DNA of 64,000 nucleotides, taken from Rhizodiscina lignyota. Lineage: Eukaryota. Positions 4,032 through 62,763 of the stretch are shown here, piece after piece. The translations under genes were made by a program, and so were the position numbers. The first letter of the stretch is position 1; the number at the start of each line of letters is the position of its first letter. The stretch spans positions 1,736,001-1,800,000 of the forward strand of contig ML978125.1 of assembly GCA_010015805.1 (NCBI GenBank), in the 5' to 3' direction. Under the pieces are notes generated by a model that saw nothing but the letters and a program-made list of their open reading frames with translations, searched no databases and had not been told where the DNA came from.

Positions 4032-5515
4032 ATGCGTTACAATCTTGTGGCCAGCGCCCTTGTGGCGGCGTCGATGATGTGTGGTGTGCTCGCGCAGAGC
4101 GGCGCGGATTGTGCTGAGTCCGGAGGCAACTGGTATTGCCAGGCAGTTCAGAAGATCGCGTACTCCGGATTCGGAAAGTCTGGCCAGTACAAGAAGGTCA
4201 CCAACATGTATCCAAGCTGCCAGCAGTCTGACCAAAGCTACTCTGGACCCCTTTCTCCATTCGATGAGGAGGTAAGATATTCGATCTTGACCCTGGAGTG
4301 GCCTAGACTGACAATAACGACAGGTTTCGATGCACTTCCGTGGACCCATGGTCATCAATCAGGTCGCAGTCTACACTCCATCCAGCAGCTCCAGCAAGGC
4401 CAAGGCTCGCCGTACCGTCCACGAGCGTCGCCATGGCCATGCCGGCTTCCACAAGCGCAATAAGGAGATACGCGAGATGCAGGAGCGCCAGATTGGCGCT
4501 ACAGTCACTGCGACCATCAATGGCGAGACTGTTCACTGGATCAACGAGTACGGTGGCCCAGGTGGCTCTCCATCTACCTCCGCCGCAGCAGCTTCTACCC
4601 CTTCTTCGGCTGCTGGTAGTGGTGACGCCGGTTTCATCGGCGCTGCTGTAGATTCTGTCGAGGCTGCTGCTGCTCCCACGACCTCTTCCAGTGCCGATTC
4701 TGCTACTTCGAGCTCTTCCACAGCGTCCACGCCTGTGGCTTCTGGTGACTGGGTTCGCTCCGCCTACTACAAACAGGACTCGCAGACCGCTCAGGGTATG
4801 GTCTTCCTCAACAACATGGGTGGTAGCGCCTCTGGTGTGTTCGACAACACCTATGGCAACTCCCTGGCCTACGCCTCTCCTGATGGCAGCTCTGCTGCTT
4901 CTAGCCCTCAAGTCTCCAACGGCACGCTGGACTCCAACAAGGAGGTTATCATCTTCTCAGACCAGAAATGCAATGGCGACTGCGGCTACGTCCGCGATGG
5001 CACTGTTGCTTACCGTAAGTGCTCTCCATACCCAGTTAATCTGCAGCTTATACTAACAACGATTAGACGGTTTCGATGGCGCTGAGAAGCTCTTCCTCTT
5101 CGAGTTCTCCATGCCCGACGATGGCACCACTGGCTGGAACATGAACATGCCCTCGGGCTGGTTCCTCAACGCCCAGATCCCCCGCACTGCCCAGTACGCC
5201 TCGTGCTCCTGCTGGGAGTCCGGCTGCGGCGAGTTCGACTGGTGCGAGGTGCTCGACTCCGGCAACACGAAGTGCAAGTCCACCTGGCACGGCAACACTC
5301 CCGGAGGCAGCTCCGACTACTTTGATCGTCCCACCAGCGCGCCTATCAAGATGGCTGTTCTCATGACCCCCAGCGGTATCAACGTCCAGAAGCTTGATGA
5401 TAGCCAGGATTTCGGCACCAGCATGTCGAAGGCCACGATCAACCAGCTCAGCAGCACCAGCAGTGAGAGTGACGGCGAGAAGCTTCTCACGACACTCTTC
5501 GCGCTCGGCTCGTAG
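4032..5515 (+). CDS. TOS1: Secreted TOS1/PGA52-like putative glucanase (DUF2403+DUF2401 type), 3 exons
   Basis: Signal peptide; motifs GNWYC, YSGPLSPFDEE|VSMHFRGP, Ser/Ala-rich linker, W.LNAQIPRTAQY..CSCWESGCGEFD. Introns 4272-4323 and 5015-5066. Confidence 0.88.
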
Positions 5516-5749
5516 AGTGACGGTACATGCATGGCTTGAGATCTTTTCCTTTTTCTCTTTTGCTTTTTGTGAATACTTCACTTGCGTGGCGTAACGATCG
5601 GACATGATGCTGGTGTAGGCGGGTTCCTTCCATCACGGTTGGATACAATAGTCCATGTACACAGCGATACACATCGGAAGAAATCAAGTAAACTGTTTAA
5701 ATGACGTCTCGGGTGGCTTATGTGCATGGCGGATTGAAATGTGGAAGTG

Positions 5750-6525
5750 AAAGCGTGAAAGATGCACTGCTGCCCCCCGTGCCATAGTCGATACAGTGCC
5801 GTCGACACTGCCACATATCCTATCTTACCTCAAGTGGTGCTCACGCTCTTACAATAATTGAGTACGTGCTTGTGATGCGGGTCATATTCATAAACCACCA
5901 AATGAAGTTGGAGATCATACAGTAGAACGCATTCGATACGAGCACTGGTCGACAATCATATTTGCGGACGAGTATGAGCGAAACGCACATGATGCTCATA
6001 ACGTCGACAGCATGTCGCCCAAGTTGTCATATTCTCCATCTTGCCTCAAGAAGTGATGCCTACGCTTCCTCGGATAGTTGAATACGTGCTTGTCCTGCAG
6101 TTTACATTGATATATTGCCTAATAAACTCTGGGATATTCCAATTGCATATCTGTAGTGTCTGAACGTCAACCATCAAAGTCGTGGATGGCGAGGGCCGAA
6201 AGCAAATGGTGCTCATCATATTGATACTGTGCCGCTCACATTGCCATAATTTCTGCCTCCTCTCAGCAATTCACACCTACGCTGCTTCGATGGCTGAATA
6301 TGGGCTTGTGGCTCAGTTCATATTCAATAGCTAGTCAATGAGCTCAGACGTATTGTAGCAGGCCGTGTCGGTGGCGACGAGTTGTTAATTTGATTTCGCC
6401 GTTACGCGTGAGCGAAAGCACGTGCTGCTCGTGATATCAACACCATCCAACGCACGTGCCATAATTTGCATTCCGTGTCAACAACGGACACCTGCGCTCT
6501 TCTGCCGATGAAATGCGTTCTCAGC
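5750..6525. repeat. Degenerate tandem repeat, ~217-bp unit, about 3.5-4 copies
   Basis: Anchor motif at 5978 (gcgaaacgcacatgatgctc), 6195 (gccgaaagcaaatggtgctc) and 6412 (gcgaaagcacgtgctgctc), spaced 217/217. A second anchor (agtacgtgcttgt, aatacgtgcttgt, aatatgggcttgt) occurs at 5861, 6081 and 6297. Confidence 0.75.
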
Positions 6526-6861
6526 CGGCGATGAGTCACGCAATGCCCCTTGAATATGTCAATGTTGTTTCATAAACAATGAAAACCGCCCCCATTTTTT
6601 GACAACACCACAATTTAACATCGCGAGATCGGAGAGCACCCACAATTAAAGCTTAATTGATGTCGCACGTGAAGGCGACAGTGCGCTAGGGCGGCCGCTA
6701 ACTCAGCGTGTATGTCGATCCGGTGTTCTGAACGTTCGTGGCTTCAAGGCGTCAATTAAACGCGAATCTATTGACCGGGCTGAGGCCGTGCGCTCTCAGC
6801 GTGGTGAAGTCTGTGGCGCCGGATACGGTGTCCGTAGGTGGTAGCTAACGGAAGCATTTTC

Positions 6862-6868
6862 TATAAAA
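6862..6868 (+). promoter_or_regulatory. TATA box (TATAAAA) followed by a CT-rich initiation-type region
   Basis: ctataaaagc followed by a pyrimidine-rich stretch at 6870-6915, with no credible CDS downstream. Confidence 0.55.
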
Positions 6869-6972
6869 GCTCCCCAACCTTCCTTCCTTTCCAACCCAAT
6901 TCCTCGCTCCCCGTTTACTGCGCAGTCAGAACTGATTGTCCCAGGCTTGAGCCGACCATTTCAACCACCGCC

Positions 6973-7412
6973 CCGACCACTGCCAGGGGGAGACTGTCCG
7001 GGGACGCCCGGGCAGGACTTTCCTCTGCAGTGCTCGGTGGGGAGTGCTCTTGATGTGTCAGGCTACTTGCCATGGGCTTCAATCAGCACCTGAGTCTGTG
7101 AGGGGATTCGGGTCCTGCAGCGAGGGGGTGTCCAGCAATGTGCTCGCTTGAAGCTCGGCCTCGCATCGGCTCACCCGCCCACACTCCGCTCCGCACGTTG
7201 CAGCCAGCATGAGTTCTCTCTCCCGGGGCACAGCCCTGGGGGAAGCAGGCTCATGCAGTCTGCAGCGTGCGGAGCGGGTTGTGACGGTGAGTTCTTTCTT
7301 GGTCGTCTTCAAGCGGCACATGTTGGGCGCCCGCCCGGCTTTGGACAGCACCTTCACGCGGTGCCGGGTGTCAGTAGCCTCTCTGAGGTGAAGCCAAGAC
7401 TGTCCACTCTCC
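6973..7412 (+). ncRNA. Candidate highly structured non-coding RNA (65-nt hairpin plus ~375-nt rod)
   Basis: Nested complementary arms: 7186-7203 with 7260-7277; 7126-7153 with 7307-7332; ggctact 7061 with agtagcc 7373; ggggagtg 7039 with cactctcc 7405. A separate hairpin spans 6973-7037. Non-Watson-Crick pairs in the inspected stems are mostly G-U on the + strand. Confidence 0.6.
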
Positions 7413-8684
7413 TTTTCTCTTCTCTCTTCTTTCTTCTTTCTTTTTGACTCCTGTGTAGCAATGGCCTCACCGATGCCTCCAAGATGCTCTGATGGTCGCC
7501 TTCGCAGCCTTCGACTCTTGTGGTGTTGCCATGTACACAAATGAGCAGCTTCGACTTGAGCATTCCCTGTTGTTGATACGATGAAGGCACATCGTTCGTC
7601 AACGCCATCGTCTTCGCCGCGCTGTTTGTGCTTATCTTCAGGGATGACGTTGTCGTTGTCGACGACATTACTCAATGCTCTCCTCTTGTAGATAGTTGAA
7701 TAGAAGAAGACAAGAAACATTAGCAATTTGATCATATGTATACTTGCAGCTACGCGCTCGGTTCTGTGATGCCCACCCAGGTGATAAATGGAAATGAACA
7801 ATGACCAAAGTTCAAGATGTGATACTGCCGCGTAAACCCTTCGAGGACCTATCTTGCATCCATGTGATGATGTATTGGGTATCTTACCATGCCAGTACCC
7901 ATAGTTATAAGAAAATATGAGAATACCATGTTCGAAGTATCGTGCAGTTGAAGTCATATCGACACCCTCTTCCTTTCGACCTTGATGAGAGCACTTCCGC
8001 TCCCTGTAATCGAACGGGTGGCTATGACATGGCTTGAACGTAAAGAAGTATTTTCTAGACTAAGTAATGTGCGAAACAAACATGATAGAGCATGGCATAT
8101 TAAAACGGAGAGTAGATCTGCGTTAAGGATGCAGCATCGTCACAACGTCGAGGCATCGGGTAGCGAACATTCTCCATCTTGTATCAGGCCGTGGTGCTGG
8201 CACTTCGGTTCCACATGTGCATAAAGTTGCGAGACAATTTGAGCAGAAAGAGGCCATTTTCCTGTCCAGCAAGGCAGTGGCAAAACCGTCTGATGTTTAG
8301 TCGCGATACGCCCGAACGAGGTGCGGTTGCGCATGAAAAGTCTGGGGTAGGGAAAACGCCGACAGCCGAGGGACGTTTTGTCAGACTTCCCGCCATCCTT
8401 CGACGGAGAGGGCAACGCCTGGCGAATGAAGACTCTTTCACCCATCCATTCGCACCCACTCGGCACACCTCTTAGTACTCTCTCAAACAATCGCTTCTCT
8501 CTAATCACTTTCAAAGCATCAACTCCTCCAACGCCCTCCCCGCAACTCTCATATCGCCACTGCGTCCTTCACGCTACCTATTCCGTCATAGTTCGACCGG
8601 CAGATAAGCCGAGCACCACACCGCCAGGCTACAAGAGAGCGAGGATACACATGAGGCATTGAGGGATCTCCAAAAGTGGGCTGG

Positions 8685-10227
8685 ATGGCTTCACCATCGC
8701 CTCCCAAGCCGTGGGAGCGTGCGGGTGCCGGTGGCACATCTGCAGGTGAGTGGCACGCGCTTTGTCGACCGCTGAGCGCAAAGAATAATGGCGCTTCACG
8801 AACTTTCCAAGAATCGTCTTCGGAAGAAAGTCATAACTGACATCTGGCTACAGCGGGCGCTCCACCTGCGCCATCGACAACAACAAGTACCGGTACCTCG
8901 TCATCTATTTCTTCTACCAACCCGCCATCACTACCCGCCAGACCCAGCGCCTTAGACTCCGTTGTTAACCGCACCGCCTCAAACTACTCCACACTCAACG
9001 CAAACCGCTACGGCTCGTCACCCTACGGATACGGTGGCATGAATGGCATGAGTGGCGTGGGTGGCATGGGTGGCTACAATTCCTATTCCTCGCCGTACAA
9101 TAGATTTGGGAGCTATGGCTCCATGTACGGTGGCATGGGCGGCTACGGTGGGATGTACGGAGGAATGGGAGGAATGGGCGGCATGTACGGTGGCATGGGC
9201 GGCGGCATGGGACAGAACCCAAACGATCCGAACAGCTTGACGCAGTCGTTCAGCAACAGCACGCAGGCGACGTTCCAGCTCATTGAGAGTATCGTGGGTG
9301 CGTTCGGCGGATTTGCACAGATGCTGGAGAGCACGTATATGGCAACGCATTCATCTTTCTTCGGTATGTGCCACCGATCCCAGCAATGCTATATCGTTTG
9401 AGCACGATGTTAACGGAGTTAATACAGCAATGGTGTCTGTAGCAGAGCAATTCGGCAACCTTCGGCAAACCCTCGGCTCAGTCTTGGGCATCTTCACCAT
9501 CATGCGATGGATCCGCACAGCCATCGCCAAACTCACCGGCCGTCCCATCCCAGCCAGCGGCAAAGAGCTAACACCTTCCAACTTTGCCGCCTTCAATGGC
9601 GGTTCGCTACCCGACGGCTCCCCCGTCAACCCCCGCCCGAGCAAGAAGCCCTTCATCATGTTCCTCATCGCAGTCTTTGGCCTCCCCTATCTCATGGGCA
9701 AGCTCATTCGCGCCCTCGCAAAGGGCCAAGAGGAAGAAGAGCGCAAACGACTGGAAGCAAACCCACAAGCGTACGGCGCCGACCCCAACGCCCCCTTAGA
9801 CCCGACGAAGCTCGACTTCTGCCGCGTCGTCTACGACTTCTCGCCCGAGACAAACGCGAATGTAGTGCAGGGCGTCGACCTGAGCGTCAAGAAGGGCGAC
9901 CTCGTCGCCGTGCTGAGCAAGACGGATCCGATGGGCAATCCGAGCGAGTGGTGGCGGTGCAGGGCAAGAGACGGGCGTATGGGCTATCTGCCGAGCCCGT
10001 ATCTCGAGCCGATTCAGAGGAAGAACCAGCAGGCGATTATGAGCGCGAGTCAGTCTGGTAGTCCAGCGGGAAGCAGGGCGCAAACTATGACAGGAAGCGG
10101 GCCTACGAGTGGGAATGGGAGTCGGACGGCGACGATGACGGAGGGAAAGGAGGTGAAGCCGGTGATTGAGGGCAAGCCGGGGGATATGCCCTTGGAGAGC
10201 TTCCAGAAGGGGCAATTCTATTCGTAA
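8685..10227 (+). CDS. PEX13: Peroxin-13, peroxisomal docking protein with SH3 domain, 3 exons
   Basis: N-terminal SPPKPWE, YG/GGM-rich region, STQATFQLIESIVGAFGGFAQMLESTYMATHSSFF|AMVSVAEQFGNL and a C-terminal SH3 domain. Introns ~8746-8853 and 9364-9427. Confidence 0.96.
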
Positions 10228-61500: not shown

Positions 61501-62763
61501 CATTTGTGGACGCAGAAGGACTGCCATGGGCACCGTTCGATAAAGAACTTTGGTCTTCGTCGACTTCTAGACACCCATCATCAATCCATTCTACACGAGC
61601 TTTCCACACGCTTGCCATCTCCTCCCACGTCCGACGATTCGGTCGATCTACATGCCCTATACGTTTCCAGGCATTTTCCGCATCGGCGCTTTGGAGCTTC
61701 AGGTTCGAACGCATAATTTTGATTCCTTGCTCATTGACCCAGAGGACGAATCGACCGGACAGTGACCACTTGATAATACTGATGGTCCCTTCTCCAGAAT
61801 GCAACACCGTATCTTTGCCAGTATTTGAACCCAGGCCAATTGAACCGAGCCACCCCGAGGCAGCCGCTGCAGCGCTGTTTGTATTTGCATTGGCACTAAC
61901 TCCAACTTTGCCACCAGTCGTAAGAATCAACTGTCCTGCAAGTCCGCCAGACAAATAGGTTCGATCGTTCTTGTATTCAGGTGACAGGGCAACGGCCTGT
62001 ACGGGTCGAGCAAAGTTTCGCAACAGCACATCTTTTGGGTCGACGAGAGATGAGACACAGACATTGCCATCGATGGATGCAGTCGCTATGTATATTGAAT
62101 TAGATGGTGTTGCTGGGAGCGTAGGCTGCTGTCGCGGCGTCCTTGGTGACGCATTTACATTCGATTTGTGAGGCTGAGTGGGAGTCTGGGGTCGTGCTGG
62201 GGAGCTCGTTGGTTCAGGACTGGGCCGGAGTGTGGATTCGCTCTTAGCATTCGGCCATGGCGGTGGGAAGGGCGATACTGAGACAGCAGTGATAGAAGCT
62301 GAATGCGCCTTGTAGGTTCGTAGTTGCTGGAAGGTAGGGATCGTGATGACATGCTACTCGAGTCAACTCTATGCTTCGCATATACCTTGAAATGTAGCTT
62401 ACGATATTTCCATTGTGCGTCCCTATAATCTATAAAAGGTTTAGTAGACGTTCCAGGCACTGTGCGCTCTCTACGTTCGAATTGAAAGGTTCAAAGTACC
62501 ATCTTGTCTCCCGCAACTAGGGAGCTACTTGTTGCGTCGCCATTGCGATATATCGGCCCAAGAGTCCCAGTCAACCTGTTGTACTTGAGCTTCGGCTCAG
62601 TCTCTTCCTCCTCTTCTTCCTCCTCATCCCGCTCGGTCCCATTCTGGATATCTGGGTCGTCTCGGTCGTCGGAAGCCTTGGATGGAGTGGCTGGAGGTTG
62701 TAATGCTGGTGCAGGCAAGGCAGCGTTTTCATTCTTTCCTTCCGCGTCGTTTTCGGTAGTCAT
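58581..62763 (-). CDS. VPS41: HOPS subunit Vps41 (WD40, clathrin-like repeat, RING), multi-exon
   Basis: EPKLKYNRLT, RNFARPVQAVALSP, LHSGEGTI, PELVYLLSKTG, ISFAKEQDDPDLW.DL..YSMDKPRFI, C-terminal CGHVFH RING. Confidence 0.95.

Follow-up and report, generated by a model that had tools for sequence, protein, structure and literature searches.

The Tos1-PEX13 spacer and its palindromes

We analyzed a 64-kb window of Rhizodiscina lignyota contig ML978125.1, in which a spacer of 3.17 kb separates a Tos1-family cell-wall protein gene from PEX13 (Table 1). An earlier reading of the bare letters (hereafter the sequence-only reading) had named both flanking genes, and Pfam bears it out. The spacer is about three times as long as is typical of most related fungi: Tos1-PEX13 spacers are 0.55-1.0 kb in the eight syntenic loci with both ends located, and likewise under ~1 kb in related loci L011 and L012. 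Its GC content is 0.48-0.49, no tRNA/tmRNA-like gene was found in it, and nothing in the spacer region except PEX13 exon 1 (8685-8750) is conserved among 70 related PEX13 loci. The species is covered by a genome paper (PMC7082219, as excerpted), and no small-RNA work appeared among the matches listed for literature naming the genus.

Table 1 Features of the Tos1-PEX13 interval (positions in the window)
Feature	Positions	Strand	Details
Tos1-family cell-wall protein gene, 3' exons (upstream neighbor)	4330..5515	+	Pfam PF10287, E = 1.6e-29; stop 5513-5515
TATAAAAG motif, candidate TATA box	6862..6869	+	~100 nt upstream of hairpin 1; putative promoter function
Pyrimidine-rich stretch right after the TATA motif	6870..6916	+	47 nt, 83% C+T
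Hairpin 1, 75-nt imperfect palindrome	6968..7042	+	GC 0.73; 9-bp perfect core, 4-nt loop
Left outer "arm" of the claimed 375-nt rod	7039..7120	+	Not significant; not among blast palindromes
Orphan ORF, 292 aa	7079..7957	-	Open frame 7079-8059, 326 codons; ATG 7957; covers the whole rod
Core rod, 217-nt imperfect palindrome	7121..7337	+	Apex 7230-7232; ~90 bp; GC 0.65
Candidate intron	7287..7458	+	GTGAGT 7287-7292, branch-like TTGAC 7444-7448, TAG 7456-7458; predicted from sequence
Right outer "arm" of the claimed 375-nt rod	7338..7412	+	Not significant; same flank-shuffle test
Pyrimidine tract	7405..7447	+	43 nt, 93% C+T; strongest such tract of the window
PEX13 (downstream neighbor)	8685..10227	+	ATG 8685, intron, exons to 10227; Pfam Peroxin-13_N + SH3

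The spacer contains a lineage-specific pair of GC-rich imperfect palindromes of 75 and 217 nt, single-copy in the sequence searched. Hairpin 1 is significant as a palindrome (blast, E = 4e-4) and folds better than shuffles on both strands (+: z = -5.5; -: z = -3.7), its pairs spanning 6973-7037; the hairpin and 9-bp core proposed from the letters are confirmed. The core rod is stronger still (blast palindrome, E = 4e-21), with a minimum free energy (MFE) of -149.9 on the + strand (z = -12.2) and -118.7 on the - strand (z = -7.8) and a longest uninterrupted helix of 19 bp. Its apex lies where it had been placed, near 7230, and both helices described earlier were recovered, the 18-bp helix with one G-U pair within 7185-7203/7260-7278 and the 12-bp helix with three G-U pairs at 7126-7137/7321-7332. 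In a coarse-step scan of the + strand of the same 64 kb (887 GC-corrected windows), the core rod stood at -7.8 SD and the next independent locus at -2.6 SD. The two-strand RNAfold comparison with shuffles that the sequence-only reading had proposed gave, for the stretch 6960-7420, -260.1 kcal/mol on the + strand (z = -9.56; 0/100 shuffles as good) and -213.1 kcal/mol on the - strand (z = -5.32), structure far beyond chance.

The claim of one rod of ~375 nt (7039-7412) holds in part: the + strand MFE structure does draw 110 pairs there, but only the 217 nt of the core are significant. The real outer flanks add -64.4 kcal/mol, compared with -61.1 ± 4.2 kcal/mol for shuffled flanks (z = -0.77; 45/200 as good), and we attribute the outer stems to chance. 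The two palindromes are statistically solid, and the 375-nt rod was overcalled.

Other candidate features of the spacer were rejected. A duplicated PEX13 start at 7461 had a local score of 12, matched by 18 of 300 shuffles, and a fifth tandem-repeat unit at 8167-8203, with which the hairpin block would be an insertion into an array, had a profile E of 6.7.

Relatives, copies and strand asymmetry

Searches of the 70 related PEX13 loci with blastn, tblastx and nhmmer (E <= 10) recovered no homolog of the hairpins or of either half of the spacer. These relatives are distant, their PEX13 sharing no more than 80% identity with the query's; a relative at 87% is represented by a protein record alone. 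A BLASTN comparison of syntenic TOS1-PEX13 intervals had been suggested by the sequence-only reading, and the hairpins are absent from the relatives. Because none of the 70 loci holds a homolog, neither covariation nor conservation backs the proposed "new RNA class"; expressed or not, this is one lineage-specific locus and gives no grounds for a conserved class. The accompanying observation, that hallmarks of known families are missing, agrees with our search of 6000-8500 on both strands (Rfam 15, cmscan, E <= 1; membership defined as a score at or above the gathering threshold): no family reached its threshold, and the lone match was group-II-D1D4-4 on the minus strand at 6884-7030 (19.3 bits vs. 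a gathering threshold of 49, E = 0.18). The telomerase RNA of filamentous ascomycetes carries a template complementary to a TTAGGG-type telomere repeat; CCCTAA, TTAGGG, AACCCTAA and TAACCC, motifs that may differ from the host's repeat, are absent from 5516-8686. A conserved housekeeping RNA of an undescribed class would account for a strong, strand-biased structure that has no Rfam match, but it is extremely improbable given a plain bulged rod that has no multi-helix architecture and is missing at the syntenic site and elsewhere in the 70 loci, in a spacer with neither a telomere-template motif nor a tRNA-like gene.

The core has no second copy in the window (blastn) or in ~569 kb of related contigs, and no target-site duplication was found at the ends of 7121-7337 or 6968-7042. 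As a control we took a proven mobile palindrome, a 503-nt MITE in a related locus (L043, 5546-6046) with GC 0.30, arms 97% identical, a G-U:A-C ratio of 3:3, a TA target duplication and an empty site in related contigs L046 and L047. Like the rod, it is palindromic DNA in a fungal intergenic region; it is AT-rich with near-identical arms and a TA duplication, whereas the rod is GC-rich, diverged, free of such a duplication and single-copy in the sequence searched. A relic of a foldback/MITE-type transposon is consistent with a core that is one inverted repeat throughout, with a spacer longer than those of relatives and with the occurrence of mobile palindromes in related fungi. We nevertheless consider such a relic very unlikely, because the sequence searched holds a single copy without target-site duplication at either palindrome, the arms are just ~77% alike, and GC here is high compared with 0.15-0.54 in relatives' palindromes and 0.30 in the MITE.

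The arms of the core rod align with 80 Watson-Crick pairs, 10 G-U, 2 A-C, 12 transversion-type mismatches and 8 gap columns (8-13 across two alignments), and transversion-type mismatches are as numerous as transition-type. In a strand-neutral arm alignment over the full claimed span, G-U exceeds A-C by 19:4 (binomial P ~ 0.003). The ratio is 12:2 when hairpin 1 is counted with the core (P = 0.013), 10:2 for the core (P = 0.039; 9:2 in a second alignment, P = 0.065) and, depending on the alignment, 2:0 or 3:1 for hairpin 1; the core asymmetry rests on 11-12 informative positions. The core also folds better on the + than on the - strand by 31.2 kcal/mol, a gap (-31.2 kcal/mol, + minus -) reached in 11 of 600 strand-symmetric neutral-decay simulations. 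The sequence-only reading had taken the predominance of G-U over A-C as selection on a + strand fold; the predominance stands overall, but within the significant core it shrinks to 9-10:2 (P = 0.04-0.065). This asymmetry moderately favors either a + strand RNA or mutation that is biased on the + strand. RIP, which would leave C-to-T changes at CpA, a raised TpA/ApT and a lowered (CpA+TpG)/(ApC+GpT), was excluded as the origin of the one-strand G-U pairs: in the rod, TpA/ApT is 0 and (CpA+TpG)/(ApC+GpT) is 1.67, none of the 22 wobble T's stands before an A, and GC is 0.65; from the indices and the wobble T's, RIP cannot account for the asymmetry.

The same data bear on an inert DNA palindrome, in which an inverted duplication that arose long ago by template switch or fold-back repair would be decaying in a fast-evolving, expanded spacer, with no role at the RNA level and the fold as a by-product. 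Its lineage specificity (nothing alignable in 70 related loci), the spacer of 3.17 kb vs. 0.55-1.0 kb in the eight syntenic loci, the divergence of the arms to ~77% with 8-13 gap columns and equal numbers of the two mismatch types, outer "stems" due to chance and a core asymmetry of only moderate significance (P = 0.04-0.065) are consistent with such decay. The one-strand excess of 19:4, the energy gap reached in 11/600 simulations, a GC of 0.65-0.73 within a spacer of GC 0.48-0.49, and the TATA/CT-rich stretch just upstream argue against it, and on balance we regard inert decay as possible but rather improbable. If the locus is unexpressed, it is a decaying inverted duplication and would serve as a reminder that a DNA palindrome lacking any RNA function can yield extreme fold z-scores.

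The opposite-strand reading frame

The sequence-only reading had seen no credible CDS downstream of the TATA motif, which overlooked an open frame that runs for 326 codons along the minus strand; its 292-aa ORF is deposited, with an identical entry in NCBI/UniRef/nr as a hypothetical protein, though it is an orphan and unconvincing. A frame of this length in the spacer has a chance of 0.001-0.007 (1/1000, 20/3000 and 13/3000 simulations). A search of 5.77 billion clusters of 160-511 aa recovered the ORF itself and nothing else, and a search of 1.84 billion representatives recovered the ORF and one weak match (E = 5e-4); the weak match, P0002, is a repetitive 1141-aa protein and was judged spurious. 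The ORF has no Pfam family, and its Atlas model has pTM 0.17 and pLDDT 0.38. Frame 0 gives its best codon score, which is above zero (0.028) and falls 1.8 SD short of the average for 21 long ORFs (0.108 ± 0.045); GC3 stands at 0.53 for the ORF and 0.45 for its N-terminal part, compared with 0.58-0.85 in neighboring genes. Protein coding is therefore doubtful by homologs, by domain or fold and by codon usage; the one point in its favor is how long the frame stays open.

The locus might instead be a young orphan minus-strand gene running from ATG 7957 to the stop at 7079, with the palindrome in the 3' coding third, hairpin 1 in the 3' UTR and the "TATA" as a T-rich 3'-end element. Such a gene would fit the deposited entry, the rarity of the 326-codon frame and the positive codon score in frame 0. 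It is unlikely, since the ORF finds only itself besides the weak match and has no Pfam family, its model and its codon and GC3 values are poor as given above, the G-U asymmetry favors the opposite (+) strand, and a 90-bp stem within a CDS would presumably hinder translation. Read on the minus strand, the pyrimidine tract at 7405-7447 encodes a K/E/R-rich stretch of the 292-aa ORF.

A candidate + strand hairpin RNA

The TATAAAA reported at 6862 by the sequence-only reading is present, as TATAAAAG, and the window, counted on both strands (128 kb), has just two further TATAAAA motifs. In filamentous fungi, core promoters come with CT-rich tracts, and one such tract directly follows the motif; by a rough post hoc estimate, the chance of a TATA motif plus C+T stretch upstream of the hairpins is ~0.007. 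On the minus strand the motif could presumably be read as a T-rich 3'-end signal of the 292-aa ORF, which counts against a + strand hairpin RNA. A second TATAAAAG at 62431 was discarded as a promoter comparison: its CT-rich stretch is antisense to an acidic coding stretch and so is uninformative about promoters. Past the TATA/CT stretch, no ORFs other than very short ones lie on the + strand, as would suit a non-coding RNA.

We tentatively favor a lineage-specific + strand hairpin RNA, an hpRNA-like Dicer substrate, with a probability of roughly 0.4. RNA polymerase II would initiate just past the TATAAAAG/CT-rich stretch (6862-6916) and yield a non-coding + strand RNA, the first ~450 nt of which would fold into bulged stem-loops of ~27 bp and ~90 bp; the long stem may represent an hpRNA or an over-long milRNA-like precursor, and a Dicer-type RNase III would cut it into small RNAs. 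Transcription, its direction, processing and any target are here what we infer. Consistent with the hairpin RNA are the extreme fold of the core rod (z = -12.2; -7.8 SD among 887 windows), the G-U excess with an energy gap reached in 11/600 simulations and RIP excluded, a rare TATAAAA ~100 nt upstream followed by 83% C+T, the very short + strand ORFs, the contrast with the mobile palindrome of the relative, and Dicer-like processing of inverted-repeat RNAs in filamentous ascomycetes: in the excerpted text of PMC12871901, RNAs from inverted-repeat transgenes in Aspergillus fumigatus give rise to DclB-dependent 20-nt 5'-U small RNAs. Against it stand the few informative positions of the core asymmetry (11-12; 9:2, P = 0.065 in the second alignment), the absence of the hairpins from 70/70 related PEX13 loci, and the deposited opposite-strand ORF across the rod, its 326-codon frame being unlikely by chance (0.001-0.007). 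The arms also lack a target-like match inside the window: blastn gave none, and the best tblastx matches had E = 0.017-0.07 (24-26 bits), none of them significant, by which a derivation of the arms from a gene of the window was rejected.

The candidate hairpin RNA resembles Drosophila hpRNA/endo-siRNA and plant long-IR loci in being a single inverted repeat of a few hundred nucleotides with a long bulged stem, in its putative Pol II-type context and in rapid lineage-specific turnover; hpRNAs are described as young and fast-evolving in the available portions of PMC10317233 and PMC10292708. What defines such loci is Dicer-dependent siRNAs together with homology between the arms and a target gene; ours is a candidate predicted from sequence, and its ~90-bp stem with many bulges lies at the short, imperfect end of the class; no target-like sequence lies within the 64 kb, and the minus-strand frame has no protein homolog. 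Like fungal milRNA precursors, it folds with a very favorable energy into a bulged stem-loop that contains G-U pairs. According to the excerpted parts of PMC9757828, the hairpins of well-supported fungal mi/milRNA loci are short (inter-duplex length <20 nt), the rank of a candidate depends on its small-RNA evidence, its conservation and its lack of overlap with a CDS or transposon, and reported milRNA loci of filamentous fungi are mostly short and poorly supported. By the excerpted criteria, the hairpins have the stem-loop fold but no conservation (0 matches in 70 related loci). The ~90-bp stem is several times longer than the well-supported hairpins, which also weighs against the leading reading, and, unlike milRNA loci with their short hairpins, it is unconserved and overlaps a doubtful opposite-strand CDS. 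In inverted-repeat RNAi transgenes of filamentous ascomycetes, as here, a promoter (a candidate one in our case) precedes an inverted repeat, but the transgenes form perfect 500-bp gene-directed duplexes, whereas the present repeat is natural, 217 nt long and ~77% complementary between its arms.

If a + strand RNA exists and is diced, the locus would be a clean natural long-hairpin small-RNA locus in a filamentous fungus, and it would show a very young regulatory RNA that lies beside a possible de novo ORF or overlaps with one. A more specific version, in which a promoter-driven, young, single-copy hpRNA of a little-studied Dothideomycete lineage would be diced to silence a gene elsewhere in Drosophila-like fashion, with splicing competing with dicing, is distinctly unlikely. 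The 5' splice site of the candidate intron sits within the 3' arm of the core rod.

Palindromes in the Tos1-PEX13 spacer

The window comes from the nuclear genome of a filamentous ascomycete. The Tos1 stop and the PEX13 ATG bound a 3.17-kb spacer (5516-8684) that holds both palindromes, and the locus therefore lies within it. The TATAAAAG motif at 6862, a 65-nt hairpin (in the fold), an 18/19-bp helix and a 12-bp helix with three G-U pairs are all present as described in the sequence-only reading. The ~375-nt rod proposed there (~7039-7412) was not upheld: sensitive self-comparison finds two palindromes only, the core and hairpin 1 (see table).

Features of the locus and its neighbourhood (window positions)
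Feature	Position	Strand	Basis and remarks
HET domain (heterokaryon incompatibility) ORF, 636 codons	531-2441	+	Pfam; upstream of Tos1 gene
Tos1-family cell-wall protein	4330-5515	+	Pfam; stop 5513-5515
Hairpin 1 palindrome	6968-7042		Sensitive self-comparison, E = 4e-4
Orphan ORF, 292 aa from ATG 7957	7079-8059	-	Spans entire rod
Core palindrome	7121-7337		Sensitive self-comparison, E = 4e-21
Candidate intron	7287-7458	+	Sequence reading alone: GTGAGT 7287, 43-nt pyrimidine tract, TTGAC 7444, TAG ending 7458
PEX13 (Peroxin-13_N + SH3)	8841-10227	+	Pfam; ATG at 8685

The region 6960-7420 folds at -260.1 kcal/mol on the + strand (z = -9.56) and at -213.1 kcal/mol on the - strand (z = -5.32), and none of 100 shuffles folded equally well on either strand. 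For the core, z was -12.2 on + and -7.8 on -, and it is the most extreme of 887 GC-corrected 217-nt windows in the same 64 kb (-7.8 SD; second-ranked independent locus, -2.6 SD). The outer flanks of the proposed rod (7039-7120 and 7338-7412) gain -64.4 kcal/mol, against -61.1 ± 4.2 when shuffled (z = -0.77; 45 of 200 as good). DNA of this kind seldom carries long palindromes: scanning 633 kb (the window and 70 related loci) returned 20 matches, with only four loci comparable.

Four degenerate tandem repeats of ~217 bp each (start-to-start 217, 217 and 216), overlooked by TRF, occupy 5758-6635, upstream of the TATA motif. Neither the rest of the window nor any of the 70 related loci contained a further copy of the unit, and a suspected fifth unit at 8167-8203 was not significant (E = 6.7). 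The unit matches the core palindrome in length, perhaps by coincidence.

Strand asymmetry and + strand features

Base-pair classes were counted after aligning the arms in a strand-neutral way. Over the full span of the proposed rod (125 Watson-Crick, 19 G-U, 4 A-C, 28 transversion-type mismatch and 21 gap columns), the G-U excess previously taken to favour the + strand stands at 19:4 (binomial P ~ 0.003); it is weaker in the significant core (10:2, P = 0.039; second alignment 9:2, P = 0.065), and core plus hairpin 1 gives 12:2 (P = 0.013). When a perfect palindrome was decayed strand-symmetrically to the observed divergence, the gap in fold energy between strands reached at least 31.2 kcal/mol in 11 of 600 runs. 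The asymmetry is thus real at roughly the 1-5% level and not overwhelming, and an inert, decaying palindrome is a serious and quite possible rival.

RIP (C-to-T repeat mutation at CpA) was rejected as the source of one-strand C-to-T changes: an A follows none of the 22 wobble T's, and RIP indices run opposite to RIP. Deamination of the non-template strand during transcription would produce the observed sign only if transcription is rightward, so selection and mutation bias alike would point to a + strand transcript. Downstream of the TATA motif, + strand ATGs open very short frames only. A + strand intron is plausible from its sequence signals, its 5′ splice site lying within the rod's 3′ arm, paired by an 8-bp helix (7168-7175/7286-7293).

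The minus-strand open frame

The sequence-only reading saw no credible CDS and overlooked a minus-strand open frame of 326 codons. Its 292-aa translation is deposited, letter for letter, as a hypothetical protein (a singleton in NCBI/UniRef/nr). Such a length is unlikely by chance in the spacer (1/1000, 20/3000 and 13/3000 simulations), which favours the locus being part of a young orphan gene. All other evidence argues against a working protein: the ORF matches only itself in sets of 1.84 billion representatives and of 5.77 billion clusters, and it has no Pfam family, a poor language-model structure (pTM 0.17, pLDDT 0.38), GC3 of 0.53 vs 0.58-0.85 in neighbouring genes, and a codon score of 0.028 per codon vs 0.108 ± 0.045 in 21 long ORFs of the window. 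The frame may be an orphan gene that arose de novo; otherwise it is a long ORF due to chance, on which a spurious gene model was built. The orphan gene is a serious rival, if a rather unlikely one.

Relatives, known RNA classes and transposons

With the PEX13 exon as protein query, the top match is a 100% identical protein of the Dothideomycete R. lignyota itself, and the next ones reach 87% and 78% identity; a close relative is lacking for comparison because R. lignyota forms its own family (PMC7082219). A PEX13 scan of metagenome contigs yielded 70 loci (53-80% identity), 14 of which carry, upstream and in the same orientation, a Tos1 relative, within ~1 kb in ten (L003, L006, L008, L011, L012, L023, L043, L046, L047 and L062). 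This order is kept across Dothideomycete-like contigs, usually with a spacer of 0.55-1.0 kb (the eight loci with both ends located: L003, L006, L008, L023, L043, L046, L047 and L062) vs 3.17 kb in the window; in four (L030, L031, L048 and L063) it is 4.6-8.8 kb. Only PEX13 exon 1 is conserved in the 70 loci; the hairpins and remaining spacer align in none (blastn, tblastx and nhmmer, E ≤ 10), and the palindromic element would therefore be lineage-specific, located in extra DNA.

No Rfam family reached threshold, no tRNA-like gene was found, and a motif search of 5516-8686 found no telomere template; a new conserved RNA class is nevertheless highly improbable, given the missing alignments. The stem is much too long for fungal milRNA precursors, whose quality criteria, in PMC9757828, include conservation and absence of CDS overlap, on both of which the window hairpin would fall short. 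The closest likeness would be to hpRNA-type inverted-repeat loci, described in PMC10317233 and PMC10292708 as young and quickly evolving, along with Aspergillus inverted-repeat transgenes, which are processed by Dicer-like B according to PMC12871901. Our most likely, still tentative, reading (probability roughly 0.4) is a non-coding, hpRNA-type hairpin RNA from the + strand, specific to this lineage.

A transposon relic is improbable: the element is palindromic, yet GC-rich and present in one copy in the window and none in the 70 related loci, with no target-site duplication, so that this reading finds no support within the DNA searched. A positive control is L043, from a related fungus, where a 503-nt AT-rich palindromic insertion (5546-6046, GC 0.30) ~1.4 kb upstream of the Tos1 gene has 185-nt arms 97% identical and a flanking TA duplication, and is missing from L046 (~6036) and L047 (~3072), contigs otherwise 98-100% identical; it is an insertion-polymorphic Tc1/mariner-type MITE, and the window palindromes are wholly unlike it. 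Other long palindromes occur in L048 (16578-17766; very AT-rich, GC 0.15-0.17) and L003 (3303-3472 and 12607-12703), with G-U:A-C counts balanced or leaning the opposite way (6:13, 4:5, 5:11 and 0:3).
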